Below are positions 1-51,342 of a stretch of DNA of 64,000 nucleotides, one piece after another (the stretch's first letter is position 1; every line of letters begins with the position of its first letter). The stretch lies in NCBI RefSeq assembly GCF_002854065.1, contig NZ_CP024147.1, one strand, 5' to 3'. Source of the stretch: Escherichia coli (GTDB taxonomy: Bacteria; Pseudomonadota; Gammaproteobacteria; Enterobacterales; Enterobacteriaceae). Both the position numbers and the translations under genes were made by a program. The notes under the pieces are model-generated. The model ran no database searches and had not been told where the DNA came from. It saw nothing but the letters and a program-made list of their open reading frames with translations.

Positions 1-515
1 GCCCCTTTAGCGGGTACCATGCCTGCTTTTTCAATTTCTTTGTCATTCGCAAAAAATTGATTAAAGGTAATATTAAAAACTGTCGGATTATCAACGCGGA
101 GCTGATTACCGTTACGCGTAAATCGCAGTTCATTTGGCGCGGTTTTTACATCACCCTTTAAACCTGCCGGGCGATAAAAAAGTTTGATTCGGGTGCGAAC
201 GGCAATCTGCAAAACATTTTTGTTTTCGCTGTCGTCACTTTTAGATGGAATGGCTTTCACATTAACCCAGTAGACCGATTCGCGATCCTGAGGCAGGCCG
301 GGCGTAATATTCACAATACGCAAAATATTGTTCTTTTCTGGATCAAGCTTGAATAGTGGGGGCGTAATAATAAACGGTGTTTTTTTGCTGCCCGCGGCAT
401 CATCCACCCAGGATTGGATAAGAAACTCTTCCGTCTTACTTTTATTCTGTACGGTCAGCGGGTGATGCTGCCAACTTACTGATTTAGTGTATGATGGTGT
501 TTTTGAGGTGCTCCA

Positions 516-791
516 GTGGCTTCTGTTTCTATCAGCTGTCCCTCCTGTTCAGCTACTGACGGGGTGGTGCGTAACGGCAAAAGCACCGCCGGACATCAGC
601 GCTATCTCTGCTCTCACTGCCGTAAAACATGGCAACTGCAGTTCACTTACACCGCTTCTCAACCCGGTACGCACCAGAAAATCATTGATATGGCCATGAA
701 TGGCGTTGGATGCCGGGCAACTGCCCGCATTATGGGCGTTGGCCTCAACACGATTTTACGTCACTTAAAAAACTCAGGCCGCAGTCGGTAA
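516..791 (+). CDS. insA: IS1 InsA (91 aa)
   Basis: ORF track. Canonical InsA sequence [30 protein letters not shown]. Confidence 0.95.
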
Positions 792-1213
792 CCTCGCGCA
801 TACAGCCGGGCAGTGACGTCATCGTCTGCGCGGAAATGGACGAACAGTGGGGCTATGTCGGGGCTAAATCGCGCCAGCGCTGGCTGTTTTACGCGTATGA
901 CAGTCTCCGGAAGACGGTTGTTGCGCACGTATTCGGTGAACGCACTATGGCGACGCTGGGGCGTCTTATGAGCCTGCTGTCACCCTTTGACGTGGTGATA
1001 TGGATGACGGATGGCTGGCCGCTGTATGAATCCCGCCTGAAGGGAAAGCTGCACGTAATCAGCAAGCGATATACGCAGCGAATTGAGCGGCATAACCTGA
1101 ATCTGAGGCAGCACCTGGCACGGCTGGGACGGAAGTCGCTGTCGTTCTCAAAATCGGTGGAGCTGCATGACAAAGTCATCGGGCATTATCTGAACATAAA
1201 ACACTATCAATAA
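710..1213 (+). CDS. insB: IS1 InsB / InsAB' transposase (frameshift at the A-run upstream)
   Basis: ORF track. Canonical InsB sequence. The A6C slippery run TTAAAAAACTC lies in the insA/insB overlap. Confidence 0.95.
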
Positions 1214-1380
1214 GTTGGAGTCATTACCCGGTCAGCGAGGCTTCTTTCTTACTGCCATCATAAATTACGCGAGTAGAGCTAAGTCCGACGCCACCCGCCA
1301 GAACTGACTGTGAAAGGAACAGAGAGAGAGCCAACGCAACAAATTTACTTTTCATCATTCGATCCATGAACTTTGACGAC

Positions 1381-32912: not shown

Positions 32913-33054
32913 TTATGTGATCGCGCCCAGGTCATCCCTGACAGTAAATCCCAGTTCATTAGAAATAGCCTGCGCGGTTTCACGCAGTGGTTTCAGGAGA
33001 TTTTTCTCCCCCACCTGTTTCAGACGTGATGTCGAAAGCGAAATCGACACGGCA
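32913..33054 (-). pseudogene. yiaJ: 3'-terminal remnant (~46 codons) of an IclR-family regulator gene (yiaJ-like), truncated by the inserted AraC–GPH–GH127 cassette
   Basis: Minus-strand translation gives ...VSISLSTSRLKQVGEKNLLKPLRETAQAISNELGFTVRDDLGAIT* (stop at 32913..32915). It resembles the C-terminal effector domain end of IclR proteins. In K-12, yiaJ occupies this position. Confidence 0.5.
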
Positions 33055-33855
33055 CTACGAATTGATATGTTCCTTGCTGTAACGCCGCTTCCACGCTGCT
33101 GGCGTTAAACCGGTGTGTTTGCGAAAAATCTGCCGGAAATAGCCAACGTCATTAAACCCGCACAACGCCGCCACTTCCGTGAGCGATCGCGCTTCGCTAA
33201 TTAACAGCTTTTCGGCTTCGCGCACCCGCTGGCGATGGATTGCTTCTGTTAACGTCAGATGAAACACCCGCCGGTAGACGCGCCCAAGATAATCGGCATT
33301 GCAGTACAGCTCGCGGGCCAGAAGCGCCGTAGAAAGCGGGCGATGATATTGCGTGCGGATCAGTTTCTGCGCTTTCCAGGCAAGGGTGGTGCCTGCGCCA
33401 TCGGCCTGTTCATCAAGACGCGCGTCACGGGTGAGCTGCTGCAAAATGAGCAGCACAATAAACTCCAGCGCCGGAGTGCGTTGATGCTTTTCCTGTTCGC
33501 TTAAGAACTGGCGAAACAGGGCCACCAGCGCCTGCGGATCGACAACCTTCGTTTGTTGCGGCACGCTAAGATGAGTAAGCCAGCGAGGGTCGTTGTCCGG
33601 CGCTTTAACCTCAAAATGCAGCCAGTAAAATTTGAGATCGGCGGGAAAATCCTCCACCCCAACATGTTGTCGGTTCGGCCAGAGTAATAAACTCTCTCCC
33701 GCATCGACCAGAAATATCCGTTCTTCTTCCTGAATCGTTAATCGACCTTTTTCGACAAAGATAATTTCCCATGACTCCAGCCGCCTTGCAGGATGCCTCC
33801 CTACGCCACGGGAAATAAATAATCCACCATTTTGCACTTTAATCGGTAACGTCAT
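33055..33855 (-). CDS. AraC/XylS-family transcriptional regulator (N-terminal cupin sugar-binding domain plus C-terminal HTH)
   Basis: C-terminal AraC HTH signature (...LTEVAALCGFNDVGYFRQIFRKHTGLTPAAWKR). Divergent from the downstream transporter gene. Not part of the K-12 backbone. Confidence 0.8.
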   Translation of the reverse strand: MTLPIKVQNGGLFISRGVGRHPARRLESWEIIFVEKGRLTIQEEERIFLVDAGESLLLWPNRQHVGVEDFPADLKFYWLHFEVKAPDNDPRWLTHLSVPQQTKVVDPQALVALFRQFLSEQEKHQRTPALEFIVLLILQQLTRDARLDEQADGAGTTLAWKAQKLIRTQYHRPLSTALLARELYCNADYLGRVYRRVFHLTLTEAIHRQRVREAEKLLISEARSLTEVAALCGFNDVGYFRQIFRKHTGLTPAAWKRRYSKEHINS

Positions 33856-33918
33856 GGATAATTCGAGCATTGATATGTAATTTCCCGCTTATTCATTAAT
33901 GATTAAACACATTACCTT

Positions 33919-33933
33919 TTGATTATTAATCAA
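33919..33933. promoter_or_regulatory. 15-bp perfect palindrome TTGATTATTAATCAA in the divergent AraC-regulator / transporter promoter region. Candidate operator.
   Basis: Read directly from the sequence, in a 225-bp AT-rich intergenic region with additional ATTAAT repeats. Confidence 0.35.
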
Positions 33934-34095
33934 AAACATTAATTTCACCTGATCTATTTCACACTTTTAAATTCAGGTCGGAATCGTCACCTTTTTTTAC
34001 TCTTTTCTCGCCTTGTTGATATTCCCGTTCACGGCAGAATTAATCAGGTCATTTCAATAAAACTAAAAATTGCTCCCTATTCACGAGGAATATCT

Positions 34096-35496
34096 ATGAC
34101 CTCTACACCGATTACTACCGCTGATATCGCTAAAGGTAAAATTGACGATGCGTTATCTGTACGGGAAAAAATAGGCTACGGCCTGGGTGACGCAGGCGGC
34201 ACCGTAATAACTTGCCTGATCATGAATTTTCTCACCTTTTTCTACACCGACGTTTTTGGATTAACTCCGGCGCTGGTTGGCACGCTGTTTATTGCACTGC
34301 GCGTGTTTGATGCCATCTCCGACCCGGTGATGGGCGTCATTGCCGACCGGACGCAAAGTCGCTGGGGGCGCTTTCGTCCGTGGCAGCTATGGATTGCCAT
34401 TCCCATCGGCATTATCGGCATCCTGACGTTCACCGTGCCAGATGCCAGCATGGGAGTAAAAATCGCCTGGGCGTTCGGTACTTACCTGCTCCTTTCAGTC
34501 GGTTATACCGCCATCAACGTACCGTACTGCGCGCTGATCAACACCATGACCACCCGCCACAATGAAGTGATCTCCTGCCAGTCCTGGCGATTCGTTCTCT
34601 GTGGCGTAGCGGGATTTCTGGTTTCGGTAGGCTTACCGTGGATGGTAGATCTCTTCGGTCAGGGTAATGCCGCGCGCGGCTATCAATTGGGCGTCGGCGT
34701 GCTGTGCGCCATTGCCGTGGTGATGTTCCTGTGCTGTTTTTTCTGGGTTCGTGAACGGGTGCCACTCTCCACAATGGGGAAATTTACCCTGCGCGAACAT
34801 CTTGCCGGGCTGCGGAACAACGACCAACTGCTGCTGATGCTGGTCATGTCTTTCCTGCTGATTAACGTCTTTAACATTCGCGGCGGTGGGTATATGTACT
34901 TCATTACCTACGTCTTACAAGGCAGTACGGGCTACACGTCGCTGTTCTTCACCATGGTCACCTTCGCCTCCATTATCGGCTCGGTGATTGTCAGCCCGTT
35001 AACGCGGCGTTTCGATACCGTCAAAATTTACTACTACACCAACCTGCTCCTCGCTGCGCTGGCAGTGTTGATGTGGTTCCTGCCCTCCGGCCCGGCTTAT
35101 CAAACGCTGTGGCTGGCGGTGATCCTCGGTAATGGCGTAATTCTTGGCTTCACATTGCCACTGCACTTCTCATTGATGGCCTTTGCCGATGACTACGGCG
35201 AGTGGAAAACCCGCGTACGTTCTTCCGGCATGAACTTCGCCTTCAATCTGTTTTTCATCAAGCTGGCCTGGGCCTCCAGCGCCGGGATCATCAGCCTGCT
35301 GTTTATTTTTGTCGCCTACCAGCCTGGCGTGGAAAACCAGACCGCCAGTTCGCTTGGCGGGATCGCGGCGATGGAAACATTACTGCCTGCGCTATTCCAC
35401 CTGCTGCTGGCAGGGGCGATCCGCTTTTGCAAACTCAATCATCCTATGATGTCACGCATAGCTACCGACCTGCGTCAGCGTCATGTACAGCCTTAA
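34096..35496 (+). CDS. GPH-family (MelB/XylP/YicJ-like) glycoside-pentoside-hexuronide:cation symporter
   Basis: 466 aa, 12-TM profile, GPH signature (GYGLGDAG...[25 protein letters not shown]). Confidence 0.85.
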
Positions 35497-35506
35497 GGAG
35501 CACAAG

Positions 35507-37477
35507 ATGAACATTTCGGAAGTCGATCTGCATAAACTGACGGTCAGCGATCCGTTCCTCGGTCAGTACCAACAACTGGTCCGCGACGTGGTGATTCCTT
35601 ATCAGTGGGATGCTTTGAACGATCGTATCCCAGAAGCGGAACCCAGCCATGCGATTGAAAACTTTCGCATTGCCGCCGGACTTCAGGAGGGTGAATTTTA
35701 CGGGATGGTGTTTCAGGACAGCGACGTCGCCAAATGGCTGGAAGCAGTAGCCTGGTCGCTGTGCCAGAAGCCGGACGCCGAACTGGAAAAAACCGCCGAC
35801 GAGGTGATTGAACTGGTCGCCTCCGCCCAGTGCGAAGACGGCTATCTCAATACTTACTTTACGGTAAAAGCACCCGAAGAACGCTGGAGCAATCTGGCGG
35901 AGTGTCATGAACTTTACTGCGCAGGTCATCTGATTGAAGCCGGAGTCGCCTTCTTCCAGGCCACGGGAAAACGGCGCTTGCTGGGGGTCGTTTGCCGCCT
36001 GGCCGATCATATCGACAGCGTATTTGGTCCAGATGAAAGTAAGTTACACGGTTATCCTGGTCACCCGGAAATTGAACTGGCACTAATGCGCCTGTATGAA
36101 GTGACTGAAGAGCCGCGCTACCTGGCGCTGACGAACTATTTTGTCGAACAGCGTGGTGCGCAACCGCACTATTACGACCAGGAATATGAAAAGCGCGGGC
36201 AGACATCGCACTGGCACACCTACGGCCCGGCATGGATGGTGAAAGACAAAGCCTACAGCCAGGCACATTTGCCCCTTGCGCAACAGCAAACCGCCATCGG
36301 TCACGCGGTACGTTTTGTCTATCTGATGACCGGCGTCGCGCATCTCGCGCGTTTAAGTCACGATGACAGCAAGCGTCAGGACTGCCTGCGGCTGTGGAAC
36401 AATATGGCCCAGCGTCAGTTATATATTACCGGCGGCATTGGCTCGCAAAGCAGCGGCGAAGCGTTCACTAGCGATTACGATCTGCCGAATGACACGGTAT
36501 ACGCTGAAAGTTGCGCCTCCATCGGCCTGATGATGTTTGCCCGACGAATGCTGGAAATGGAAGGCGACAGTCAATATGCCGATGTGATGGAGCGCGCACT
36601 GTACAACACCGTGCTCGGCGGCATGGCGCTGGATGGCAAACATTTCTTCTATGTGAATCCGCTGGAAGTACATCCAAAATCGCTGAAATTCAACCATATC
36701 TACGATCACGTTAAACCGATCCGCCAGCGTTGGTTTGGCTGCGCTTGTTGTCCGCCAAATATCGCCCGCGTGCTGACCTCGATTGGTCATTATCTCTACA
36801 CGCCGCGTGAAGATGCGTTGTATATCAACATATACGCAGGAAACAGCATGGAAGTGCCGGTAGAAAATGGCACGCTGCGCCTGCGGGTTAGCGGGAACTA
36901 TCCGTGGCAGGAGCAGGTGACGATTGCGGTTGAATCGCCCCAGCCGGTACGTCATACGCTGGCTTTACGTCTGCCGGACTGGTGCACACAGCCGCAGATC
37001 ATATTGAATGGGGAAGAGGTCGAGCAGGATATTCGTAAAGGGTATTTGCACATTACCCGCGAATGGCAGGAGGGCGATACGCTGAATCTGACTTTGCCGA
37101 TGCCGGTACGCCGCGTTTACGGTAACCCGCTGGTGCGTCACGTCGCCGGAAAAGTGGCGATTCAGCGCGGCCCGCTGGTGTATTGCCTGGAACAGGCCGA
37201 CAACGGCGAGTCACTGCATAATCTGTGGCTGCCCACCGATGCGCCATTTACGACATTTGAAGGCAAGGGATTGTTTAGCCATAAGATCTTAATCCAGGCA
37301 CCGGGTTACCGGTATGAACAGAGCAATCCAGAGCAGCAACCGCTGTGGCATTACGACAGCGCGCCAGCCAAACGCCAGACGCAAACTCTGACCTTTATCC
37401 CATGGTTTAGCTGGGCCAACCGGGGTGAAGGCGAAATGCGGATCTGGGTGAATGAGGAAAAGCATTGCCATCCGTAG
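35507..37477 (+). CDS. Glycoside hydrolase family 127 (DUF1680; HypBA1-like beta-L-arabinofuranosidase)
   Basis: 656 aa. Conserved GH127 regions (NTYFTVKAPEERWSNLAECHELYCAGHLIEA; WFGCACCPPNIARVL, a Cys-rich Zn/catalytic motif). SD AAGGAG lies 7 nt upstream. The start is 10 nt after the transporter stop, suggesting an operon. Confidence 0.8.
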   Translation: MNISEVDLHKLTVSDPFLGQYQQLVRDVVIPYQWDALNDRIPEAEPSHAIENFRIAAGLQEGEFYGMVFQDSDVAKWLEAVAWSLCQKPDAELEKTADEVIELVASAQCEDGYLNTYFTVKAPEERWSNLAECHELYCAGHLIEAGVAFFQATGKRRLLGVVCRLADHIDSVFGPDESKLHGYPGHPEIELALMRLYEVTEEPRYLALTNYFVEQRGAQPHYYDQEYEKRGQTSHWHTYGPAWMVKDKAYSQAHLPLAQQQTAIGHAVRFVYLMTGVAHLARLSHDDSKRQDCLRLWNNMAQRQLYITGGIGSQSSGEAFTSDYDLPNDTVYAESCASIGLMMFARRMLEMEGDSQYADVMERALYNTVLGGMALDGKHFFYVNPLEVHPKSLKFNHIYDHVKPIRQRWFGCACCPPNIARVLTSIGHYLYTPREDALYINIYAGNSMEVPVENGTLRLRVSGNYPWQEQVTIAVESPQPVRHTLALRLPDWCTQPQIILNGEEVEQDIRKGYLHITREWQEGDTLNLTLPMPVRRVYGNPLVRHVAGKVAIQRGPLVYCLEQADNGESLHNLWLPTDAPFTTFEGKGLFSHKILIQAPGYRYEQSNPEQQPLWHYDSAPAKRQTQTLTFIPWFSWANRGEGEMRIWVNEEKHCHP

Positions 37478-37487
37478 GTTGGATAAG

Positions 37488-37590
37488 GCACTCGCGCCGC
37501 ATCCAACGTAAGGAGCACATTGCCTGATGCGACGCTTAACACGTCTTATCAGGCATACAAGTCGGTGCGAGAGCGTAGGCCAGCCGCACC
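37488..37590. repeat. REP/BIME elements between GH127 and yiaT
   Basis: GGATAAGGCACTCGCGCCGCATCC and GCCTGATGCGACGCTTAACACGTCTTATCAGGC palindromic units. Confidence 0.7.
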
Positions 37591-37606
37591 GACATCCACC
37601 GGTGAA

Positions 37607-38347
37607 TTAAAAACGCCAGCTCACGCCGGTGACAAAGGTAAAACTCTCATTACGATCAATCATCGGGCTGTCGGTAATCTCTTCCGGCAGCTCGCTGTAT
37701 CCGGCGCTCGCCATCAATACGACGTGCTCTCCTATCGGGTATTTTGCCGTCAGGCTGACATAGGGCACCCAGGCATCCTGCGCGGAATAACTTGCCAGAC
37801 CGCTACGACGGGACTCACTCTCTGAAATGCCATAGTAATAGTCACTGAAATTCTCGTCATAATAGAGAACGCCCAGCGCAGGTGTCAGCGACAGACGACC
37901 TATCTGCATTTTGTGGAATACCGATAGCTCCCCCACCCAGCCGTTGCTGTTATCCAGAACGTCCGCAGCTGCAGAGGCTTTCACGGTTCCCCAACGCTCG
38001 TGGTGATACCAGGCAACCCCCGCCATAGCCGTACTATCACGCTTATCAAGCTGTTGCATGGCATAATCGTCATTATCGGCAGGGTCAAATTCCAGCGGCA
38101 TCCAGGATGCGGTCAGGCTAAGTTCATTTTTTTCACTTTGCGACAGAATAAAACCTAACGTGGTCTGACGAACATAAAAAGAATCACCTTCATAACTAAT
38201 CAGGGGAATTGCCTTTGTATTTTCATTATAACCGCGATAAGGCGATTCATTATAAGCCGCACCAGCACCAATGGATAATTCAGAAGCAGTTGCGCTTGCC
38301 ATAAAAGGCAACGCAAATAACGCCACAATATTGCGGTTAATTAACAT
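37607..38347 (-). CDS. yiaT: Outer-membrane protein YiaT (MipA/OmpV family)
   Basis: 246 aa, signal peptide, C-terminal ...SWRF. Confidence 0.88.
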   Translation of the reverse strand: MLINRNIVALFALPFMASATASELSIGAGAAYNESPYRGYNENTKAIPLISYEGDSFYVRQTTLGFILSQSEKNELSLTASWMPLEFDPADNDDYAMQQLDKRDSTAMAGVAWYHHERWGTVKASAAADVLDNSNGWVGELSVFHKMQIGRLSLTPALGVLYYDENFSDYYYGISESESRRSGLASYSAQDAWVPYVSLTAKYPIGEHVVLMASAGYSELPEEITDSPMIDRNESFTFVTGVSWRF

Positions 38348-38470
38348 GTCCGGTATTCCATTTTAAAATAAGATAAAAAAGAGTCGGCATAGTAATGCTT
38401 ACAATTTCTCCGGTGCAAGATTCATATTTATATAGTAATATATAAAATTATATATAATTGGGCTGTTGCG

Positions 38471-39445
38471 ATGACAAAATTACAACTTAAGTACCGGGAG
38501 TTAAAAATTATCTCGGTAATCGCTGCCAGTGAAAATATCAGCCATGCTGCGACTGTACTTGGCATCGCACAGGCCAACGTCAGCAAATACCTTGCTGATT
38601 TTGAATCAAAAGTGGGTTTAAAAGTCTTTGACCGAACCACCCGGCAGCTGATGCTCACACCTTTTGGTACCGCGCTGTTACCGTACATCAACGACATGCT
38701 GGACAGAAACGAGCAGCTTAATAATTTTATTGCAGATTATAAGCATGAGAAACGTGGTCGGGTCACCATCTACGCCCCAACCGGCATAATTACCTATTTA
38801 TCCAAACATGTAATCGATAAAATTAAAGATATCGGTGATATAACCTTATCGCTAAAAACCTGCAATCTTGAGCGTAATGCCTTTTATGAAGGCGTCGAAT
38901 TTCCTGATGATTGTGATGTTTTAATCAGCTACGCTCCACCAAAAGATGAATCGCTGGTTGCCAGTTTTATTACACAATATGCCGTAACCGCTTATGCCAG
39001 CCAGCGCTATCTTGAGAAACATCCTATTAGCCGTCCTGACGAACTCGAACATCACTCCTGTATTTTGATCGACTCGATGATGATCGACGACGCGAATATC
39101 TGGCGCTTCAACGTCGCCGGGAGTAAAGAGGTGCGGGATTATCGCGTGAAGGGAAATTACGTTTGCGACAACACGCAATCTGCGCTGGAGCTGGCACGAA
39201 ATCACCTGGGGATTGTGTTTGCGCCAGACAAAAGTGTGCAGAGAGATCTGCAAGACGGCACGCTGGTGCCCTGCTTTCAGCACCCGTATGAATGGTGGCT
39301 GGATCTGGTGGCTATCTTCCGTAAACGGGAATACCAGCCCTGGCGGGTCCAGTATGTGCTGGATGAAATGCTGCGTGAAATTCGCCACCAGCTTGCTCAG
39401 TCGCAGCAACTGCGGCCTGAACAAGCGGCGGAAAGCGAAGATTAA
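38471..39445 (+). CDS. yiaU: LysR-family transcriptional regulator YiaU
   Basis: 324 aa. N-terminal HTH. Confidence 0.9.
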
Positions 39446-40578
39446 TGATCGAGATAAAGGTAATGCACCCAGCTGGTCATGCGTAATAACACTTTGCGCA
39501 TCACCGAGACATGGCTGAAATGATCAGAGTAGACCGCCACCTGGGCGTAAATACCGTCTGGTAAAGCGCTCAAATCAGTGTGCTCATTCAGTTCAATGGT
39601 CGCGATAACGCCATCTGAACCCGGCGCTGTGTTTAACGTCTGTAAGGTGCCGGTCGACTGATAAGCTCCGCCGGGAACGGCTGGACTAATGGCTGCCAGC
39701 TTACCGCTGAATACCTTACCTGGCAGAGCATTAAACACCACTTCCGCATCGTCGCCAGGGGCCAGTCGCAGCAAGGAGTTCTGACGGAACTGCGCCACAA
39801 TTTGTCGTTTCTGATCGGGTATAAACACCATCACCGGACGTAGCGGCAGCGACGCGGCATAGGTACCCGGACGAATCAGTACCTGGGTCACATAACCATC
39901 GCTCGGCGCACGCACTATCGTCTGCTCAAGGTTATATTTTGCTTCCGCGAGCTGCGCTTTCAGGCTGGCGATTTGAGAATGTTCACCCAACACCAGGCTA
40001 TCCAGCTGGCTCTGGATCTGTTTTTGTTCCGCCGCCGATGACTTCACGGAGGCTTCCTGCGCCAGATAATTTTGCCGCGCCACATCGATATCGCGTTCTG
40101 AAAACGGGTTTACTTTCGCCTGGCTGCCGCGTGCGTAACGCTGATACTCTTTAGCGAATTTATCCCGCGTGGCCTTTGCCTGCTGAGTATTCGCCGCCAT
40201 CTCATCTAACTCTGCGCCCAACGCCCGCTGTTTATGTTCTGCGGTAACGATATCCGCCATCAGCCGATCCACCTGCGCCTGATAACGCGTCGGGTCCAGT
40301 CGAAATAGCACCTCACCTTTTTTAATTAGCGTATTTTTCTTGTCCGTCACTTCGATCACCACGCCTGTCACCTGCGGGACAACAGGAATAGAAATAACCG
40401 CTTTTTGCGCTTTAAAGGTATACGGATGGTTATAGTTCATTAACAGAATTAAACCGCTGACAATAAATATTCCACCCAGGGCCGCGGTGGGAATGGTCCA
40501 TTTATTTACAGGAATTTTGAAGATCTTAAACATTGCCCATGCGAAAGCCACATAGGTCAAAATAATCAGTAAATCCAT
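39442..40578 (-). CDS. yiaV: HlyD-family membrane-fusion protein YiaV
   Basis: 378 aa, single N-terminal TM, coiled-coil region. Confidence 0.9.
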
Positions 40579-40583
40579 AAGTA

Positions 40584-40907
40584 TTACTCGGCAGAAGAGG
40601 ATTTGATGTCAGCGAGCTGTTTCTCCAGCCCAGCAATACGCTGTTGTAGTTGCACAACGGAGGAGTCATGGTTTTGCATTCCCCATCCCCGCTCCGGGCG
40701 GTAAAGCGTGGCCCAAATCCACAAAAATGGCCAGATAACATGCAGCGTAAAAAGACTCACCCAACCAGCAACATGAATGGCGTCGGCATGAGGATGATTA
40801 CGTTTTTTAGCAATCAGGTAGGGAATATCATGTAAAATAATAATCCCATAGAATATCACCAGAAATACAAAAATAAGCACTCCCAGTGCAAAATAGTCCA
40901 GGAACAT
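40584..40907 (-). CDS. yiaW: DUF3302 small inner-membrane protein YiaW
   Basis: 107 aa, [45 protein letters not shown]... Confidence 0.88.
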
Positions 40908-41336
40908 ATTTCCCTCAGAGAATATAAAAAAGAACAATTAACACATATTATGAAATGCCATGATGCAGTGCAATTTCCTTATTTATATAACGACATATTA
41001 TTTTTTATATACTTTCTGAAGTGTGCTGCGTGGCTTTTCAACAGGTCGAGGTTTATCATATTGAAATAATGGAACTATTGGCCAAATTTATGATTAAAAA
41101 CCGTAAAACATCCACAATGCAGATTAAGCGTATTAAACCTTCAATAATCTACCGTTTATTGCTGATTGTCCTCGGAATACCAATGGTGATTTACGGTCTG
41201 GTTTGCCCGCTCACCATCGAAACGCGAGATTAAACTCCTGGCAAAACACACCCCAGAAACGCACTTTTGTTGGCGTAGTCTGGGTTATTGCACACGTAGG
41301 TTTAAAACGTAAATTGTAACAACGTGCGCTTTGTTT

Positions 41337-41430
41337 ATGCCGGATGCGGCGTGTACGCCTTATCCGGCCTACGGTCAGGTCCCCGTAGGCATGATAAGAC
41401 GCGTAAGCGTCGCATCAGGCAATTAATACC
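41337..41430. repeat. REP/BIME pair downstream of aldB
   Basis: GCCGGATGCGGCGTGTACGCCTTATCCGGCCTAC and ...GACGCGTAAGCGTCGCATCAGGC. Confidence 0.8.
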
Positions 41431-41451
41431 CGATGCGACCAGCTTCTTACA

Positions 41452-42990
41452 TCAGAACAGCCCCAACGGTTTATCTGAGTAGCTCACCAGCAGGCACTTG
41501 GTTTGCTGGTAATGCTCCAGCATCATCTTGTGGGTTTCGCGTCCAATGCCTGATTGTTTGTAGCCGCCAAACGCCGCATGTGCCGGGTAAGCGTGATAAC
41601 AGTTGGTCCACACGCGCCCGGCCTGAATGCCGCGCCCCATCTTATAGGCCAGATTACCGTTGCGGCTCCAGACGCCTGCGCCCAGGCCATATTGCGTATC
41701 GTTCGCCAGCTCCAGCGCTTCTTCCATCGTTTTGAAGGTGGTCACCGCCAGCACCGGGCCAAAAATCTCTTCCTGGAACACCCGCATATTGTTCTGACCA
41801 AACAGAATCGTCGGTTCAAGGTAGTAGCCGTCTTTCAGTTCGCCTTCCAGCAGCTTGCGCCGCCCGCCGGTGAGCACGTCTGCGCCCTCTTTTTTACCGA
41901 TATCAATGTAGTTGAGGATGGTTTCCAGTTGCCCGTGAGAAACCTGCGCACCCATTTGCGTCACGCTGTCGAGTGGGTTACCGCTGCGAATGCTTTCGAC
42001 ACGGCGGATGGCGCGTTCCATAAAGCGTTCGTAGATTGACTCCTGCACTAAGGCACGACTCGGACAGGTGCAAACTTCGCCCTGGTTAAAGGCAAACAGT
42101 GCAAAGCCTTCCAGCGCTTTATCGAAAAAGGCATCTTCTTCATCCATCACATCAGCAAAGAAGATATTTGGCGACTTACCGCCCAACTCCAGCGTCACCG
42201 GAATAATGTTTTGCGTTGCGTATTGCATAATTTGTTGGCCCACTTCCGTTGAGCCGGTAAACGCCACTTTGGCGATGCGTTTCGAGGTCGCCAGATATTC
42301 GCCAATTTCCCCACCTGCGCCATTGACCACGTTCACCACGCCCGGCGGCAGTAAATCACCGACAATTTCCATTAGCAGCAGTACAGAAAGCGGGGTAAGA
42401 CGTGCGGGTTTCAGCACCACACAGTTGCCCGCCGCCAGCGCGGGAGCCATTTTCCAGCTCGCCATCAGCAGCGGGAAGTTCCACGGGATAATCTGCCCCA
42501 CCACGCCTAACGGTTCATGGAAATGATAGGCCACGGTTTCGCTATCAACTTCACTGATCCCACCTTCCTGCGCCCGAATACACGAGGCGAAATAGCGGAA
42601 ATGGTCAATCGCCAGCGGTACATCCGCAGCACTGGTTTCGCGAATGGGTTTGCCGTTATCCCAGGTTTCAGCTGTCGCTAACAGCTCGAGGTTTTGTTCC
42701 ATTCGATCGGCAATCTTAAACAGAATCGCCGCGCGATCCTGCACCGAGGTGTGCGCCCATTTATCTTTCACTTTGTGCGCAGCATCCAGCGCCAGATCGA
42801 TGTCTCGTTTGCCCGAAGACGCCACTTCGCACAGCAGCTGCCCGGTCACCGGCGTCAGGTTCTGGTAATACTCACCATCGGCAGGGGCTACCCATTCGCC
42901 GCCAATAAAGTTGTCATAGCGGTTTTTTAACTTGAGGGGGAAACCATACTCGCCGGGCTTAATCTGTGCTGAAGGGGGATTATTGGTCAT
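41452..42990 (-). CDS. aldB: Aldehyde dehydrogenase B (NADP-dependent)
   Basis: [36 protein letters not shown]..., 512 aa. The track ORF is extended 46 codons at the 5' end. Confidence 0.93.
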
Positions 42991-43154
42991 GATCGTCTCC
43001 TTGCGGTGTGAGGTATAACAAGGGTAGACGTGACTGGCGAAATCTTCGCCAGTCGGTAACAGCTTTACGACAGCTATCACGAATTTACGGGCAAGGATTA
43101 CAGAGATAGTTGAAAAAGCGGCTGACAATTTGCCAGCCGTTGTTGGAATGATGA

Positions 43155-44167
43155 TTACATTGCGGCGCGATAAATCGCCACAATTTCTTCGTGAGTTGCC
43201 TGGATCGGGTTAGTAAAGCCACAGGCATCTTTCAGGGCATTAGTCGCCAGAACCGCGAAATCTTCTTCTTTCACGTTCAGGTCGCGTAGGCCTGCCGGGA
43301 TATCCACTTTCTTCGCCAGTTCACGGATGGCGTTAATGCAGGCTTCAGCACCTTCCGCGTCGTTTTTACCTGTCACGTTCACGCCCATTGCAGCGGCACA
43401 GTCACGCAGACGTGCAGCGGCGACTTTGCTGTTGAATACCTGAACATGCGGCAGCAGAACGGCGTTACATACACCGTGTGGCAGGTTGTAGAAACCGCCC
43501 AGCTGGTGCGCCATCGCATGAACATAACCCAGAGAAGCATTATTGAACGCCATACCGGCGAGGAACTGGGCATAAGCCATTGCTTCACGCGCTTTCGCAT
43601 TACTGCCATCTTCAACGGCTAACGGCAGGTTTTCGGCAATCATGGTCACGGCTTTCAGTGCACAAGCGTCAGTGATCGGCGTGGCGGCAATAGAAACATA
43701 CGCTTCGATAGCGTGCGTTAAGGCATCCATACCCGTTGCGGCGGTCAGTGACTTCGGCATACCAATCATCAGAGAGGAGTCATTGACAGAAAGCAGCGGA
43801 GTGACATGTTTATCAACAATCGCCATTTTGATATGACGCGCTTCGTCAGTGATGATGCAGAAACGGGTCATTTCAGAGGCCGTACCCGCCGTGGTATTGA
43901 TGGCGATCATCGGCAGCTGCGGTTTTGCAGAGCGGTCAACGCCTTCGTAATCGCGAATATCGCCGCCATTGGCTGCCACCAGCGCAATACCTTTTGCGCA
44001 GTCGTGCGGAGAACCACCGCCTAAGGAAATCACGCTATCGCAATTATTTTCTTTAAGTAATTTCAAACCTGCAGCGACGTTTTCCGTGGTGGGGTTAGGT
44101 TGGGTGCCATCATAAATAATGCTAAAAATATTGCGTTCTTCCAGTGCTTTTTGCACATCGCCCGCCA
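43155..44167 (-). pseudogene. yiaY: Fe-containing alcohol dehydrogenase YiaY, 5'-truncated by IS1 (promoter and first ~47 codons missing)
   Basis: The frame continues ...[15 protein letters not shown] straight into the IS1 terminus at 44168. No yiaY 5' sequence lies on the other side of the IS. Confidence 0.8.
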
Positions 44168-44182
44168 GGTAATGACTCCAAC

Positions 44183-44686
44183 TTATTGATAGTGTTTTAT
44201 GTTCAGATAATGCCCGATGACTTTGTCATGCAGCTCCACCGATTTTGAGAACGACAGCGACTTCCGTCCCAGCCGTGCCAGGTGCTGCCTCAGATTCAGG
44301 TTATGCCGCTCAATTCGCTGCGTATATCGCTTGCTGATTACGTGCAGCTTTCCCTTCAGGCGGGATTCATACAGCGGCCAGCCATCCGTCATCCATATCA
44401 CCACGTCAAAGGGTGACAGCAGGCTCATAAGACGCCCCAGCGTCGCCATAGTGCGTTCACCGAATACGTGCGCAACAACCGTCTTCCGGAGACTGTCATA
44501 CGCGTAAAACAGCCAGCGCTGGCGCGATTTAGCCCCGACATAGCCCCACTGTTCGTCCATTTCCGCGCAGACGATGACGTCACTGCCCGGCTGTATGCGC
44601 GAGGTTACCGACTGCGGCCTGAGTTTTTTAAGTGACGTAAAATCGTGTTGAGGCCAACGCCCATAATGCGGGCAGTTGCCCGGCAT
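44183..44686 (-). CDS. insB: IS1 InsB
   Basis: Protein identical to copy A. Confidence 0.95.
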
Positions 44687-44880
44687 CCAACGCCATTCAT
44701 GGCCATATCAATGATTTTCTGGTGCGTACCGGGTTGAGAAGCGGTGTAAGTGAACTGCAGTTGCCATGTTTTACGGCAGTGAGAGCAGAGATAGCGCTGA
44801 TGTCCGGCGGTGCTTTTGCCGTTACGCACCACCCCGTCAGTAGCTGAACAGGAGGGACAGCTGATAGAAACAGAAGCCAC
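44605..44880 (-). CDS. insA: IS1 InsA
   Basis: Protein identical to copy A. Confidence 0.95.
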
Positions 44881-44962
44881 TGGAGCACCTCAAAAACACC
44901 ATCATACACTAAATCAGTAAGTTGGCAGCATCACCTATTATTGTTTAGCAAAATTAATCTAA

Positions 44963-45002
44963 TAAAAAGCACATTGTATTCATTAAACAATGTGCTTTTT
45001 TT
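44963..45002. terminator. Bidirectional rho-independent terminator (AAAAAGCACATTGT-attcatta-AACAATGTGCTTTTTTT) in the 85-bp segment between the two IS1 copies. Presumptive native selB terminator.
   Basis: Perfect 10-bp stem with A/T runs on both sides. Confidence 0.75.
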
Positions 45003-45035
45003 AAAATCATAAGAATTTTGGGTAATGACTCCAAC

Positions 45036-45539
45036 TTATTGATAGTGTTTTATGTTCAGATAATGCCCGATGACTTTGTCATGCAGCTCCACCGATTTTG
45101 AGAACGACAGCGACTTCCGTCCCAGCCGTGCCAGGTGCTGCCTCAGATTCAGGTTATGCCGCTCAATTCGCTGCGTATATCGCTTGCTGATTACGTGCAG
45201 CTTTCCCTTCAGGCGGGATTCATACAGCGGCCAGCCATCCGTCATCCATATCACCACGTCAAAGGGTGACAGCAGGCTCATAAGACGCCCCAGCGTCGCC
45301 ATAGTGCGTTCACCGAATACGTGCGCAACAACCGTCTTCCGGAGCCTGTCATACGCGTAAAACAGCCAGCGCTGGCGCGATTTAGCCCCGACGTATCCCC
45401 ACTGTTCGTCCATTTCCGCGCAGACGATGACGTCACTGCCCGGCTGTATGCGCGAGGTTACCGACTGCGGCCTGAGTTTTTTAAATGGCGGAAAATCGTG
45501 TTGAGGCCAACGCCCATAATGCGGGCGGTTGCCCGGCAT
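45036..45539 (-). CDS. insB: IS1 InsB (variant: C5R, T17P, S18P, L19F, S65R)
   Basis: ORF track comparison with 44183..44686. Confidence 0.93.
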
Positions 45540-45733
45540 CCAACGCCATTCATGGCCATATCAATGATTTTCTGGTGCGTACCGGGTTGAGAAGCGGTGT
45601 AAGTGAACTGCAGTTGCCATGTTTTACGGCAGTGAGAGCAGAGATAGCGCTGATGTCCGGCAGTGCTTTTGCCGTTACGCACCACCCCATCAGTAGCTGA
45701 ACAGGAGGGACAGCTGATAGAAACAGAAGCCAC
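45458..45733 (-). CDS. insA: IS1 InsA (variant: L81F)
   Basis: ORF track. Confidence 0.93.
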
Positions 45734-45831
45734 TGGAGCACCTCAAAAACACCATCATACACTAAATCAGTAAGTTGGCAGCATCACCGAATTTTGTATT
45801 AATTTATTTTAAAACTTAATTAATCATTTCC

Positions 45832-47676
45832 TTATTTTTCCGGAAATAATAATGCGTCGCGCAATAAATGATCATTTCCACGACGACGCGTAAAGCCAAT
45901 GCGGTCAAAATATTCCAGGATTTGAATCGCCAGTTTTCGCCCAACCCCTAAGCGATCGCGGAAATCCGCCGCGCAGGTTGAACCACATTCCTGATCGAGA
46001 TCGCGGATCATATTGGCAAACTCGACAATCCGATCGTTACGGTAATAACGATCTTTGACGATCGCGGTAATTATCCCCTGTTGGGCCGCCTGGCGTAGCG
46101 TCAGACGCATTGCCTGCTCGTCGGTTCCCGTCTCTTTTGCCAGGTCACGCACCCACCACGGTTCGTCACCAAACAGCGGCTCTGCTTTTTGCCAGATGGC
46201 CTGCTGCTCTTCGCTGAAGCCCGCTTTGTGATCCGGCAGATGCAGCCAACCGTGATGACTGAGGATGTCGCCGCTTTCGCGCATCTTTTCAATCAGCAAC
46301 AGTACCAGCGCTTCATCTTCCATTGGCAACGCCATACGTCGCAGACGTTCGCGCCCAGGACCAGGTTCATCGCGATGTTGCTCATGATAAGTCGCTAATG
46401 TGTCGAGAATTTTCCGCTGCCAGCGGGCGGCAACTGGCGCATTCAACAAGCTATAACCAGCCTGAATATAGCCCGGCTGTTGCAGTAGTTCGCGCATCCC
46501 TTCGCCGTTGAGCTGGCGTGCCCAGGCGAAATCCGCAAGGTTAACCGCTCCGCGTTCCAGATGAACAGATAACGCATCGGCATCGCTCTGCGCCCGTGCA
46601 AGAGACGCCAGCCATTGCAGATATTCCGGCTTACGTTTACCGCGACGCGGCGGGTTAAGCATCACCACACGTGCCCCCGCCAGCGTATTGCGGGCCGAGA
46701 TATCGCGCAACACTAAGCGATCGTTATCCGCCAGCCACAGCGGCGTGTCGAACACCAGCTCGGCAAGGTTATCTTCCAGCAGCGAAACGCGTCCCGTAAC
46801 GTGGCTGGCGGCGTGGTGAATATGCAGCGGCTGCCACTGGGTCAGCGGCGTATGGGTTTGAAGCTCGACAATCACCCGCGTGAACGGCTCTGGCGGCACA
46901 TCGGCAAGCAGCCAGTCGCCACGGTTAATCTGCTCTTTTTCCGCATCCCCCGCGATGTTAAGCGCGATACGCTGGCCGGCATGAGCGGTTTCTGTTGGCT
47001 GGTTTTGTGCATGCAGCGCACGTACACGCATCGGTTTATTTACACCAGTCAGCCATAGTGAATCGCCTACCGTCACTTCCCCGCTTAACGCCGTACCGGT
47101 GACGACCAGCCCGGCACCTTTTACGGTAAATGCGCGGTCGATCGCGAGGCGGAAACTATGTTGGCTGGCGTGTTCACGTTCTGGTAACTGAAGCAGATGC
47201 TCGCGCAGGGCATCAATTCCCCGACCCTCGGTTGCTGCGGTGATAAACAGTTTTGCCTCAGCAAAACCGTATTCCCGCAGCACCTCCTTTACCTGGCGTT
47301 CAACCTCATTAACACGCGCTTCGTCCACGCGATCGGCTTTGGTCAGCGCCACTGTCAGCATCGGGTTACCGGTCAGCTGCAAAATCGCCAGATGCTCACG
47401 GGTCTGTGCCATCACACCGTCATCGCACGCCACCACCAACAGCGCGTGATCGATACCACCAACGCCCGCCAGCATGTTGGAAAGAAACTTTTCATGACCG
47501 GGTACGTCGATAAAACCAGGCACGCGACCATCCGGCTGCGGCCAGTAGGCATAGCCGAGATCGATGGTCATGCCGCGCTTTTTTTCTTCCGGCAGACGAT
47601 CGGCATTTACGCCAGTAATCGCCTGCAATAAGGTTGTTTTGCCGTGGTCAACGTGTCCGGCAGTCGCAATAATCAT
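45832..47676 (-). CDS. selB: Selenocysteine-specific elongation factor
   Basis: 614 aa, G domain [11 protein letters not shown]. Confidence 0.96.
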
Positions 47677-49064
47677 TTCAACAACATCTCCAAAAACCGT
47701 TGCTCATCTTCAAGGCAGCGTAAATCCAGCCACAATCGTCCGTCATAAATACGACCAATCACCGGCACTGGCAATTCACGCCAGCGGGCGGCTAATGACT
47801 CAAGGTGGCTACCGCGTCCATCATGGGGTGTAAACGTTAATGCCGCGCTCGGCAGGCGATCAACCGGCAGCGAACCACTGCCAATCTGCGAAAGACATGG
47901 CATAACCTGTACCGCAAACTCCGCGCCGTAATGTGCGGCAAGGGGAGCCTGTAAACGTTGTGCCTGGATTTGAATGACCTCTGCGCTGCGGGTAAGCAGG
48001 CGCAGGGTCGGTAATTTTTCACTCAGAGCTTCAGGGTGTAAATAAAGACGCAACGTGGCTTCCAACGCCGCGAGGGTCATTTTATCCGCGCGTAATGCAC
48101 GCTTCAGCGGGTGGCTTTGCAGGCGGGCGATCATCTCTTTTTTACCAACAATAATTCCTGCCTGCGGCCCGCCTAACAACTTGTCGCCGGAGAAGCTCAC
48201 CAGACTGACGCCCGCCGCAATCAACTCCTGCGGCATTGGCTCTTTCGGCAAACCGTACTGGCTAAGATCGACCAGCGAGCCACTGCCTAAATCAGTCACT
48301 ACGGGAACATCCAGCTCTTTGCCGAGCGCCACCAGTTCAGCTTCGTCTATCGCTTTGGTGAACCCCTGAATGCTGTAGTTACTGGTATGTACTTTCATCA
48401 ACAGTGCGGTATTTTCATTCACCGCCTGACGATAATCATTCGCGTGCGTGCGGTTGGTGGTCCCTACTTCGTGTAGGGTGCAGCCTGCCTGACGCATAAC
48501 ATCGGGAATACGAAACGCGCCGCCAATCTCCACCAGTTCGCCGCGAGATACCACTACCTCTTTCCCGCTGGCAATGGCCGCCAACATCAATAACACCGCC
48601 GCCGCATTGTTATTAACGATACAGGCATCTTCCGCCCCCGTAATACGGCACAGCAACTGCGCCAGCGCACGATCGCGATGTCCGCGTCCGGCGTCGTCCA
48701 GATCGTACTCGAGGGTCACTGGCGAACGCATAGCCTGCGCAACGGCTTCCACCGCGGCTTCCGCCTGTAAAGCTCGCCCAAGGTTGGTATGCAGCACGGT
48801 TCCCGTCAGGTTGATCACCGGACGCAGCGCACTCTGCGCCTCTTTCGTCAACCGGGCATCGACTTCTTGCGCCCAGTTTTCACACCACGCAGGCAGCGTC
48901 TGGCTGCCACGAATCACTTCTCGCGCTTCGTCGAGCATCTGACGCAACAATTCCACCACGCGGGTGTGACCATAAGTATCACGCAAAGAAAGGAAGGAGC
49001 TATCGCGCAATAAGCGATCAATAGCCGGAAGTTGACTATAGAGGGAACGCGTTTCGGTTGTCAT
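47673..49064 (-). CDS. selA: L-seryl-tRNA(Sec) selenium transferase
   Basis: 463 aa, [21 protein letters not shown]. Confidence 0.96.
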
Positions 49065-49161
49065 AGGAAACCTGGCTGATCAAGGCCCTCTCACACGGAG
49101 AAGAGCGTTTAACATAACCACGGATTGTAACGTGAGATGGGTCAGGAGGACATATCGCGCA

Positions 49162-49770
49162 TCAAGCCTTTGGCGGTTCGGTGCGAGCAAAACTTTCGCG
49201 GCTAAACAGGTTTTCGACCAGTTTGACTAAGTGTGGGCGGTCGACACACCAACCTGGCGCAACGCGGCGGAAATTGAGATATCCGACGGCACAGGCAATA
49301 GCGATAGTCGCCAGATTGACCGTATCGGTTTTGAGTGTGCCATCGACCAGATATCCTTCCAGCACATCCAGACTGCGGTTGATTTTCTCCCGCTGGCGTA
49401 ACAATTCATCTTCAGACTGCTGCGCCGCTGGACGCGCCTGTTCACGCACCGATACCAGCCCGGCATCCATAATGCCATCCGCCAGTGCCTCAATTTTGCG
49501 CACCCGCAACGACTCCAGCGGATCGCGCGGCAACATCGCCGGAGCGACATTCATTAATTCAATATATTCAGCGATGATCGGCGAATCAAACCAGCATTCG
49601 CCCTCTTCGGTCACCAGCACCGGCACTTTTCCTAACGGGTTAAATTGCGCCACGCCGTTGTCCGCGTTATAGGGCAGTTCATTAATAAATTCGAAAGTTA
49701 TGCCCTTTTCTAACAACAGAATAGAAAGTTTGCGTACAAACGGGCTGGTGTAGCTACCGACGAGTTTCAT
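49162..49770 (-). CDS. yibF: Glutathione S-transferase-like protein YibF
   Basis: 202 aa. GST N- and C-terminal domains. Confidence 0.9.
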
Positions 49771-49840
49771 GCCGAGTCCTTTGTGCGAGGAAAAATATCA
49801 GTATGGCTCAGGCTCACGCAAAACACAGGTGATATAAGTC

Positions 49841-50977
49841 TCAATGATCCAAATAAAGATAATGCATCCAGCTGGTCATTCTTAGCAGCACTTTTCGCAT
49901 CACCGAAACATGGCTGAAATGGTCGGAGTAAACTGCCACCTGGGCGTAAATGCCGTCGGGTAAGGCATCGATATCATCGTTAGGGTCCAGTTCAATGGTT
50001 CCCAGCACACCGTCCGTGCCGGGCACGACCGTTAATGATTGCAATACCCCCTGCGCCTGATAAGAACCGCCTGGCACGACAGGTAAAATACTGGTCAGTT
50101 TGCCGTGGAACACCTGCCCAGGTAGCGCGTTAAACACCACTTCCGCATCATCGCCAGGTTTCAGACGTAACAGCGAGTTTTGCCGAAATTGGGCGACAAT
50201 TTGCCGTTTTTGCTCGGGGATGAAAACCATCACCGGACGCAACGGCAAGGCAGCTGCGTATGTGCCTGGGCGGATCAGTACCTGAGTGACGTAGCCATTG
50301 CTTGGTGCGCGAATGACGGTCTGTTCAAGGTTATATTTTGCTTCTGTAAGTTGCGCTCTTAAGCTCACAATCTGCGATTGCTCGCCGTTGACCATACTGT
50401 CGAGCTGACTCTGGATCTGCGCCTGCTCCGCCACCGAGCCTTTCACTAACGCATCCTGCGCGAGGAAATTTTGCCGCGCATCGTCGATGTCACGTTCCGA
50501 GAACGGATTCACCGCCGCCTGGCTGCCTTTCAGATAACGTTGATAATTTTTAAACAGACGGTCGCGCTCCGCTGAAACCTGGGTGGTGTTGGCCTGCGCT
50601 TCAGTGAGCTGCGCGCGCAGCGTCTTTATATTATGCGTCGCCGTCATCAGGTCAGCCTGAAGTCTGTCAACTCGCGCCTGGTAACGAACCGGGTCGAGCT
50701 TAAAAAGCACCTCGCCCTTTTGAATAAGCTGATTATTCTTGTCAGTGACTTCAGTAACAATTCCCGTCACCTGTGGCGTGATGGGGATCGCTATCACTGC
50801 CTTTTGCGCGGTAAAAGTGTAAGGGTGGTTGTAGTTCATCAACAAAATCAAACCACTCACCAGAAACACGCCTCCCAGCGCCGCCGTCGCCAGCGTCCAC
50901 TGATTCACCGGAATGCGGAAGATTTTAAAGACCGCCCACGCCAACGCCACGTAAGTTAAAACAATCAATAGATCCAT
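49841..50977 (-). CDS. yibH: HlyD-family membrane-fusion protein YibH (paralog of YiaV)
   Basis: 378 aa, ~70% identical to the 39442..40578 product. Confidence 0.9.
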
Positions 50978-50979
50978 AA

Positions 50980-51342
50980 TTAGATCTCCGGGAACGTGGA
51001 ATAGTCAGTCTTTTTCTCGGCGGCGAGTTGGTGCTCCAGCCGGGAAATTCGGTCAGAAAGTGCGGCGATTTCCGGGTCAGTCGCTTTCTCCTGCGACGCA
51101 ACATGTGACTGCATACCCCAGCCACGCTCCGGTTGATAGAGCGTCGCCCAGATCCACAGAAACGGCCAGATAACATGCAGAGTAAACAGGCTCACCCAGC
51201 CCGCCGTATGAATAGCGTCGGCATGGGGATGGTTGCGCTTTTTGGCAATCAGATAAGGGATGTCATGTATCGCGATGATTCCATAAAAAATCACCAGAAA
51301 GACGAAGATCAGCACTCCCAACGCGAAATAGTTTAGAAACAT
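50980..51342 (-). CDS. yibI: DUF3302 small membrane protein YibI (paralog of YiaW)
   Basis: 120 aa. Confidence 0.88.

Follow-up and report, generated by a model that had tools for sequence, protein, structure and literature searches.

Among described systems, those closest to the genes considered here are the aaeX-aaeA-aaeB operon and the adaptor EmrA of EmrAB-TolC. In aaeXAB, a small two-helix membrane protein is encoded directly upstream of an adaptor of the EmrA/MdtN/AaeA branch, and the third gene encodes the pump; ydhIJK and ytcA-mdtNOP are also made up of a small membrane protein, an adaptor and a FUSC/ArAE pump. In the 64,000-nucleotide (nt) stretch of Escherichia coli DNA analyzed here (contig NZ_CP024147.1; hereafter the window), two gene pairs, yiaW-yiaV and yibI-yibH, show the same order, with a gene for a DUF3302 protein directly upstream of a gene for an HlyD-family adaptor, but the pump gene of aaeXAB is missing at both of them, as it is at every other DUF3302-adaptor locus examined. 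The paralogy of the pairs is part of the annotation of every E. coli genome, and the genes and their families are likewise already annotated, so that the feature itself is known and its arrangement is ordinary. Considering all of the evidence below, we regard it as likely that the two pairs are the two known copies of one conserved operon, which encodes a DUF3302 helical-hairpin inner-membrane protein translationally coupled to an EmrA-like periplasmic adaptor, that yibIH is the ancestral copy and yiaWV a long-diverged accessory copy, and that the two are non-recombinogenic.

The segment is E. coli/Shigella chromosomal DNA with the gene order yiaT-yiaU-yiaV-yiaW-aldB-yiaY'-IS1-IS1-selB-selA-yibF-yibH-yibI-mtlA, in which both pairs lie on the minus strand. 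The first pair comprises yiaV (39442..40578), encoding an EmrA-like periplasmic adaptor of 378 aa, and yiaW (40584..40907), encoding a DUF3302 two-helix inner-membrane protein of 107 aa when counted from its ATG, which was taken as the start here (the mechanical list of open reading frames runs on to a TTG at 40937). Their respective paralogues are yibH (49841..50977; 378 aa) and yibI (50980..51342; 120 aa; DUF3302). The spacers within the pairs, given as 3 nt and 5 nt in an earlier note on this DNA, read as 5 nt between yiaW and yiaV (TAA-TACTT-ATG) and 2 nt between yibI and yibH (TAA-TT-ATG). The DNA between the pairs (40908..49840) measures 8,933 nt; the distance of 9.2 kb stated previously does not describe this interval and corresponds instead to the 9.26 kb from the start of yiaV to the stop of yibH.

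The two operons align end to end, with 69.2% identity over 1505 columns by blastn (E = 0) and 68.6% (1031/1502) in a global alignment, and the homology spans from 12 nt upstream of the ATG of the small gene to the stop codon of the large one. At the protein level, YiaV and YibH are 76.7% identical without any gap, and YiaW and YibI are 74% identical. The open reading frames, the Pfam matches and this full-length alignment agree with the earlier description of paralogous HlyD-family and DUF3302 gene pairs on the same strand; the two pairs are true paralogues, each consisting of an HlyD-family adaptor and a DUF3302 protein. The length that had been claimed for the similarity (more than 1 kb) is correct and extends to about 1.5 kb, but the identity of 69% falls just under the claimed range of ~70–75%; the pairwise alignment that had been proposed as a check therefore gave a value above the 60% below which the observation was to count as refuted.

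The divergence of the copies is old. Identity at third codon positions is 0.44 between the paralogues, the nonsynonymous divergence (dN) is 0.18, and the synonymous divergence (dS) is not computable; synonymous sites between yiaWV and yibIH are saturated. Both copies are under strong purifying selection, because dN/dS between orthologues is 0.01-0.05, for yiaV and yibH alike. When E. coli and two Citrobacter genomes were compared, the orthologues (nucleotide identity 0.77-0.81) were closer than the paralogues within each genome (0.70-0.71), which argues that no gene conversion or concerted evolution has taken place, and the YiaV clade received 100% bootstrap support. Between E. coli and the genomes of the C. 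amalonaticus group, dN is 0.037 for one copy versus 0.038 for the other, indicating that both have evolved at an equal, slow rate after the initial divergence.

The two copies differ in their distribution. A synteny scan with one genome per species returned 80 loci. The order mtlA-yibI-yibH-yibF-selA-selB(-aldB) was found in Citrobacter, Enterobacter, Lelliottia, Leclercia, Raoultella, Trabulsiella, Pseudescherichia and Atlantibacter, and also in Kluyvera, although no mtlA was detected in its flank. Among the 80 loci, aldB-yiaW-yiaV-yiaU-yiaT was confined to Escherichia, the C. amalonaticus group and Citrobacter sp. NCU1, apart from Citrobacter sp. Awk 4, whose short contig has this order as far as it extends but ends before yiaT. 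Among 5426 complete E. coli genomes, the set used for all population counts in this study, yibHI is present in 5406 (99.6%) and yiaVW in 3800, being absent from about 30%, and neither was found on any plasmid of these genomes. Because yibIH is syntenic across the Enterobacteriaceae and near-universal in E. coli, its gene context points to yibIH as the ancestral copy, fixed between mtlA and yibF-selAB throughout the family.

The genomes without yiaVW miss the entire yiaT-yiaU-yiaV-yiaW block. Besides yiaWV, this block holds yiaT (37607..38347, minus strand), encoding a MipA/OmpV-family outer-membrane protein (Pfam MipA, 4.9e-52; named from the RefSeq annotation of identical DNA), and yiaU, also called lpsR (38471..39445, plus strand), which encodes a LysR-type regulator with Pfam HTH_1 and LysR_substrate domains and converges with yiaV. 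The insertion or deletion comprises 3.85 kb (37535..41384) and is flanked by two clusters of repetitive extragenic palindromic (REP) sequences and bacterial interspersed mosaic elements. The breakpoint against a genome without yiaTUVW falls in the left cluster (37472..37558), and the right one (41335..41423) marks the other boundary. The left cluster scores 58.7 bits for naRNA4, a REP-derived Rfam family, against a gathering score of 59.5, the right cluster is also near threshold, and the two are inverted repeats of each other. At the empty site, a single merged REP cluster lies between the GH127 gene and aldB. Thus, yiaTUVW is a REP-bounded accessory cassette. Adjoining yiaT is a block of genes for an AraC regulator, a major facilitator superfamily (MFS) transporter and a GH127 glycoside hydrolase (33043..37534), of which E. 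coli 55989 keeps only an AraC remnant; the genomes without yiaTUVW retain this AraC-MFS-GH127 block, and the present window has both blocks.

The origin of this second copy may be explained in more than one way. A local tandem duplication, reaching from upstream of yibI to downstream of aldB, after which the second copy was reduced to its first two genes and diverged quickly, has in our estimation nearly an even chance of being correct. It predicts exactly the order and orientation observed (yibI-yibH-yibF-selA-selB-yiaY-aldB followed by yiaW-yiaV), and it is consistent with the confinement of the homology to the operon and its ribosome-binding site, with the equal slow rates after the initial divergence, and with the mean identity of YiaV to YibH of the Enterobacteriaceae (77%) as compared with the copies of Serratia, Rahnella, Erwinia and other non-syntenic loci (74%). 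However, the paralogue dN of 0.18 exceeds the dN of 0.125 between E. coli and Serratia orthologues, so that a tandem duplication needs a 2-3-fold early acceleration. In addition, the G + C contents of yiaW, yiaU and yiaT (0.46-0.49) are lower than those of their neighbors (0.52-0.56), and the REP-bounded cassette that carries the copy also contains yiaT and yiaU, for which no counterpart exists at the yibIH locus.

The same G + C contents and the REP-bounded indel speak for horizontal acquisition, in which yiaTUVW would have entered the ancestor of Escherichia and Citrobacter ready-made, yiaWV being a xenologue of yibIH and its proximity to it coincidental; this we hold to be plausible, with a chance somewhat below even. 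The accessory distribution, in 70% of E. coli and only a few species of Citrobacter, also fits such an event, as does the operator-like element described below, which is common to yiaT and yiaW and ties them into one unit. In a neighbor-joining tree, whose rooting with a 30%-identical planctomycete sequence is unreliable, the YiaV clade lies outside the main YibH clade and groups with a long-branched Atlantibacter sequence in 86% of the bootstraps. On the other hand, no donor came to light, the identity of YiaV to Atlantibacter (75%) is no higher than to other YibH proteins (76-79%), and the G + C content of yiaV (0.51) is near that of yibH (0.525). Moreover, a tandem duplication would be expected to leave yiaWV where it is, in the same orientation and exactly at the end of the yibI...aldB block. 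The Atlantibacter adaptor, from the syntenic mtlA-yibF locus (L060-L062, L064, L070), is unusually diverged, with 75% identity to YiaV and to YibH alike, and its DUF3302 partner resembles YiaW more closely than YibI, an observation that may reflect long-branch attraction or may hint at the source of yiaWV.

Whichever way the second copy arose, two homologous operons in the same orientation could be expected to recombine, and the earlier note had suggested that this direct-repeat arrangement is a potential substrate for deletion or amplification. According to this explanation, yiaWV and yibIH would mediate RecA-dependent loss or gain of aldB-yiaY-selAB-yibF and make the region an unstable hotspot. 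The pairs indeed resemble the recombination-active dispersed repeats of E. coli (IS1, rhs, rrn and REP) in their direct orientation, their location on one chromosome arm and their spacing of a few kilobases: they can be aligned over 1.5 kb at a distance of 8.9 kb, and the interval between them is visibly plastic, with IS1 insertions and presence or absence of an rhs element. However, repeats that recombine actively share more than 95% identity over hundreds of bases, whereas the longest identical runs between the two copies are only 20, 20, 17 and 17 bp. RecBCD/RecA recombination in E. coli reportedly has a minimal efficient processing segment of ~23-27 bp, a figure attributed to Shen & Huang (1986), and is said to drop exponentially with divergence, as attributed to Vulić et al. 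(1997). A divergence of 31% is far beyond the tolerance of mismatch repair. The pairs are therefore poor substrates, as their longest identical run is shorter than this segment and their divergence is 31%; for homologous recombination, two copies with 69% identity are in effect unrelated DNA.

The population data point in the same direction. The selA gene was found at full length in 5425 of the 5426 genomes, at 5426 places in all and thus with one extra copy, which means that at most one genome can carry the predicted deletion and at most one the predicted duplication. The yibF-yibH stretch was likewise matched in 5425 of the 5426 genomes, and, by the counts for selA and yibF, no rearrangement with endpoints in yiaWV and yibIH was seen in this set. 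No yiaVW allele of less than 95% identity was present among these genomes, which excludes large converted tracts; two such alleles were observed for yibHI. The partial matches that we inspected were truncations mediated by IS1 and IS5. Together with the lack of concerted evolution in the three genomes compared above, and with the fact that the observed plasticity is due to IS1, rhs and REP elements rather than to yiaWV and yibIH, these results leave a recombination hotspot formed by the two pairs highly improbable, and the suggested role as a deletion or amplification substrate is not supported. The real rearrangement substrates in this region are the IS1 copies, the rhs element and the REP clusters.

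The interval between the pairs had previously been described as IS-remodelled with one IS1; insertion did occur, but there are two IS1 copies, and they are unrelated to the repeats. Read from the yiaW side, the interval contains aldB (41452..42990), yiaY (43155..44167), IS1 copy 1 (44168..44935), IS1 copy 2 (45021..45788), selB-selA (45832..49064) and yibF (49162..49770), which encodes a glutathione S-transferase, all on the minus strand. Between the two IS1 copies, 85 bp of the native yiaY-selB intergenic region (44936..45020) are trapped. In an alignment to E. coli 55989, copy 2 is a simple insertion with an 8-bp target duplication, and copy 1 is joined to a 208-bp deletion: the match ends at position 44167 of the window and restarts 208 bp further along the reference. 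Since this deletion removed the promoter and the first 139 nt of yiaY, the gene is a 5'-truncated pseudogene. The two copies have the same orientation and are 98.7-98.8% identical over 768 bp, copy 2 being a variant that differs at about 10 of the 768 positions. A third IS1 (461..1228) is identical to copy 1, inverted and 43 kb away, which gives three IS1 per 64 kb. As substrates for deletion or inversion, these IS1 copies far surpass the yiaWV and yibIH pairs.

The closest complete genome, that of E. coli 100416, is 100% identical over yiaT-aldB, selA and the queried yibF-yibH stretch, but it lacks both IS1 copies of the interval and its yiaY is intact; the IS1 events are therefore recent and strain-specific. 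At the other end of the interval, yibF is separated from the stop codon of yibH by 70 bp (49771-49840), and the rhs element that is present at this place in most E. coli is absent; a yibF-yibH junction without rhs occurs in 1521 of the 5426 complete genomes. Consequently, the 9-kb spacing of the pairs is strain-dependent. The IS1 insertions and the missing rhs element are independent strain-level events. No terminator-like site was found within the 70-bp spacer, and yibIH and yibF may be co-transcribed in strains without rhs.

At the protein level, both 378-aa proteins matched the Pfam families CusB_dom_1 (57 bits; cut-off 26.5) and HlyD_D23 (45 bits; cut-off 30), and HlyD_3 was matched at 26.5 bits by YiaV and 33 bits by YibH (cut-off 22.2). 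The AlphaFold2 model of YiaV has a predicted local distance difference test score (pLDDT) of 83 and shows two hydrophobic transmembrane (TM) helices (2-20 and 28-53), a lipoyl domain, a long hairpin (97-152/161-218), a beta-barrel and a C-terminal helix (352-376). EmrA is the best sequence match to YiaV in the PDB (8zal/8zar; E = 8e-12) and also the top Foldseek hit (E = 8e-20, TM-score ~0.6), followed by MacA and AcrA, with MexA also among the top hits. Similar to EmrA, YiaV is anchored in the membrane at its N terminus, combines a lipoyl domain with a long alpha-hairpin and a beta-barrel, and is devoid of a membrane-proximal domain. However, the two are only ~20% identical; YiaV has two predicted N-terminal TM helices and EmrA one, and YiaV is distinguished by an extra conserved C-terminal helix, by the lack of an adjacent MFS pump gene and by its constant DUF3302 partner gene. 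AaeA is also homologous to YiaV (21% identity, E = 1e-14), but its hairpin is much shorter.

The NCBIfam scores of YiaV against its curated relatives are 112 bits for TIGR00998 (EmrA/EmrK; cut-off 391), 113 for MdtN (cut-off 376) and 62 for AaeA (cut-off 400). Because they lie far below these cut-offs, YiaV and YibH constitute a separate subfamily. In an alignment reaching down to 27-34% identity, the start of the second TM helix, the segment preceding the lipoyl domain and the C-terminal helix are near-invariant, with R361 and M367 invariant. At the hairpin tip, the consensus of distant family members contains R-x3-L-x6-S; YiaV and YibH keep R147 and S160, with the leucine replaced by glycine and the spacing longer by two residues.

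The small proteins are clear members of DUF3302 (PF11742), with 147 bits for YiaW and 140 bits for YibI (cut-off 32). The AlphaFold2 model of YiaW (pLDDT 87) shows helices at 2-35 and 41-68 and a tail helix at 80-106. Across 93 DUF3302 sequences, P29, A33, R36, H38, A43, P60, W65 and A66 are invariant and A41 is nearly so, and the turn reads P29...A33..R36-x-H38-P39. The C-terminal coiled tail of YiaW is the most variable part between YiaW and YibI and is absent from the distant homologues aligned. The possibility that DUF3302 is a diverged AaeX/DUF1656 family was also considered and rejected, as hhalign gave a probability of 0.4% and E = 0.14, AaeX having been entered as a single sequence and not as a profile.

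Concerning the organization of the pair, in all eight of the distant loci collected (L084-L091) the DUF3302 gene immediately precedes the adaptor gene, the two overlapping or being separated by no more than ~60 nt. These loci come from Planctomycetota, from one Pseudomonadota and one Hyphomicrobiales metagenome-assembled genome and from metagenomes, and four were reached via the small protein and four via the adaptor. The same pairing is found at non-syntenic loci of Serratia, Rahnella, Erwinia, Edaphovirga and 'Enterobacter sp. kpr-6', and Buttiauxella fits it by protein matches only. No fusion of DUF3302 to an adaptor was detected among the best 150 of 1638 family representatives (clusters at 50% identity), all of which are 75-229 aa long. 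Thus, from Enterobacterales to Planctomycetota, the DUF3302 and adaptor genes form an obligate two-gene unit in every locus examined.

No transporter gene adjoins either pair in the window, and no conserved transporter neighbor was found in ~15 genomic contexts, including seven non-syntenic Enterobacterales and the eight distant loci. The neighbors at the distant loci are unrelated to one another (sulfatases, regulators and metabolic genes), and only L091 has ABC/MacB_PCD genes downstream. Since the pair was not accompanied by a transporter gene in any of the lineages examined, we took the pair itself to be the functional unit and not an accessory of a neighboring pump. On the basis of the structural models, we tentatively suggest, with a confidence well below even, that the DUF3302 protein and the adaptor constitute one inner-membrane complex that reaches an outer-membrane channel and needs no neighboring pump. 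In such a complex, the adaptor would be anchored by its two N-terminal TM helices and form an EmrA-type periplasmic assembly, the hairpin tip of which would probably touch an outer-membrane channel such as TolC. The DUF3302 protein would then serve as a dedicated membrane partner, possibly packing on the TM and conserved C-terminal helices of the adaptor. A stronger version, that DUF3302 and a YiaV-type adaptor make up a self-contained, pump-less conduit across the envelope, and hence an unrecognized class of adaptor extending from Enterobacterales to Planctomycetota, seems to us improbable. If it were true, E. coli would keep two differently regulated versions of the conduit, one of them co-regulated with YiaT via a common YiaU operator.

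Alternatively, YiaV and YibH may be ordinary adaptors for an MFS, ATP-binding cassette (ABC) or FUSC/ArAE pump encoded elsewhere, with the DUF3302 protein as an accessory subunit comparable to AaeX or AcrZ, a possibility that we also judge unlikely, though a serious one. The EmrA-type fold of the adaptor is in line with this, as the nearest curated families (MdtN, EmrA/EmrK and AaeA) all work with pumps; the order of aaeXAB, in which the pump follows the small membrane protein and the adaptor, and the ABC/MacB_PCD genes just downstream of the pair at L091 are in line with it as well. However, a conserved transporter neighbor is lacking in the ~15 independent contexts from two or more phyla, the two N-terminal TM helices and the near-invariant C-terminal helix are foreign to EmrA, AcrA and MacA, and the relationship of DUF3302 to AaeX/DUF1656 is not detectable, with the limit on the AaeX query given above.

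Returning to our reading of the two pairs as copies of one conserved operon that may act without a neighboring pump, several observations weigh against it. The compactness of the pair is just as consistent with its serving a pump encoded at another locus. The hairpin-tip RLS motif, which contacts TolC in other adaptors, appears degenerate in YiaV and YibH. The grouping of YiaV with Atlantibacter may be long-branch attraction or may be a real signal. Finally, the phenotypes in the literature are weak and heterogeneous. In urine, where yibI is induced, a yibI mutant of strain UTI89 had a competitive index of 0.33 (PMC5404293). A yiaW::IS1 insertion arose during evolution in macrophages, but yiaW::aph alone had no effect in macrophages, with a phagosome-maturation assay as the test (PMC5495878). 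The knockout of yiaW raises the efficiency of Ca2+-mediated transformation, and yibH has been used as a neutral integration site (PMC5852967). The earlier statement that the partner pump and the function are uncertain is borne out, in that no mechanism or function for yiaWV or yibIH was found in the literature searched and TCDB lists YiaV as an uncharacterized membrane fusion protein (8.A.1.1.4; PMC10971958).

The two operons also appear to be controlled differently. An AT-rich, operator-like element of 43 nt, found as a direct repeat, occurs on the minus strand at 38414..38456, in front of both yiaT (67-109 nt from its ATG) and the divergent yiaU (15-57 nt from its ATG), and at 40969..41011, in front of yiaW (62-104 nt from its ATG). 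The pattern TATATA-N7-ATAT-N4-TTATATAAATA-N6-TTGCA matches exactly twice in the 64 kb, as compared with no match in 100 shuffles. The element is kept at both sites in Escherichia, C. amalonaticus and Citrobacter sp. NCU1 while its flanks drift, and it is absent from the 536-bp mtlA-yibI spacer. YiaU (LpsR) has been reported to repress yiaT (PMC9068703). The 43-nt element is probably a common YiaU site for yiaT and yiaWV, in which case yiaWV would join the YiaU regulon; this role of the element was not found reported in the literature searched. We infer that the regulation of the two paralogous operons has diverged. An Rfam scan of positions 37000-52500 yielded no riboswitch or small RNA upstream of yiaW or yibI, the only matches being the REP-derived, naRNA4-like ones at the cassette borders. 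At the other end of yiaV, its convergence with yiaU results in a 4-nt overlap (39442-39445) that covers both stop codons. The yiaU-yiaV pair is listed as a convergent excludon in an RNA sequencing survey (PMC12288877), which suggests antisense interference between the regulator and adaptor genes.

What this analysis adds is of modest novelty: that yiaTUVW is a REP-bounded accessory cassette, that yiaT and yiaW have an operator-like element in common, and that DUF3302 and adaptor genes are obligately paired across phyla without a pump gene. The value for genome structure is small, as the repeats are too diverged to destabilize the region. The lasting value lies in testable handles on four functionally uncharacterized E. 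coli genes, namely the YiaU regulon, the interaction within the pair and the dependence on TolC.

PADLOC defence models returned only weak coiled-coil noise. Elsewhere in the window, internal direct repeats that are 79-91% identical and hundreds of bases long are located at 59341-60524; by extrapolated coordinates, they lie inside a 5.3-kb gene for which the annotation of the near-identical strain 100416 gives a YadA-like trimeric autotransporter adhesin.

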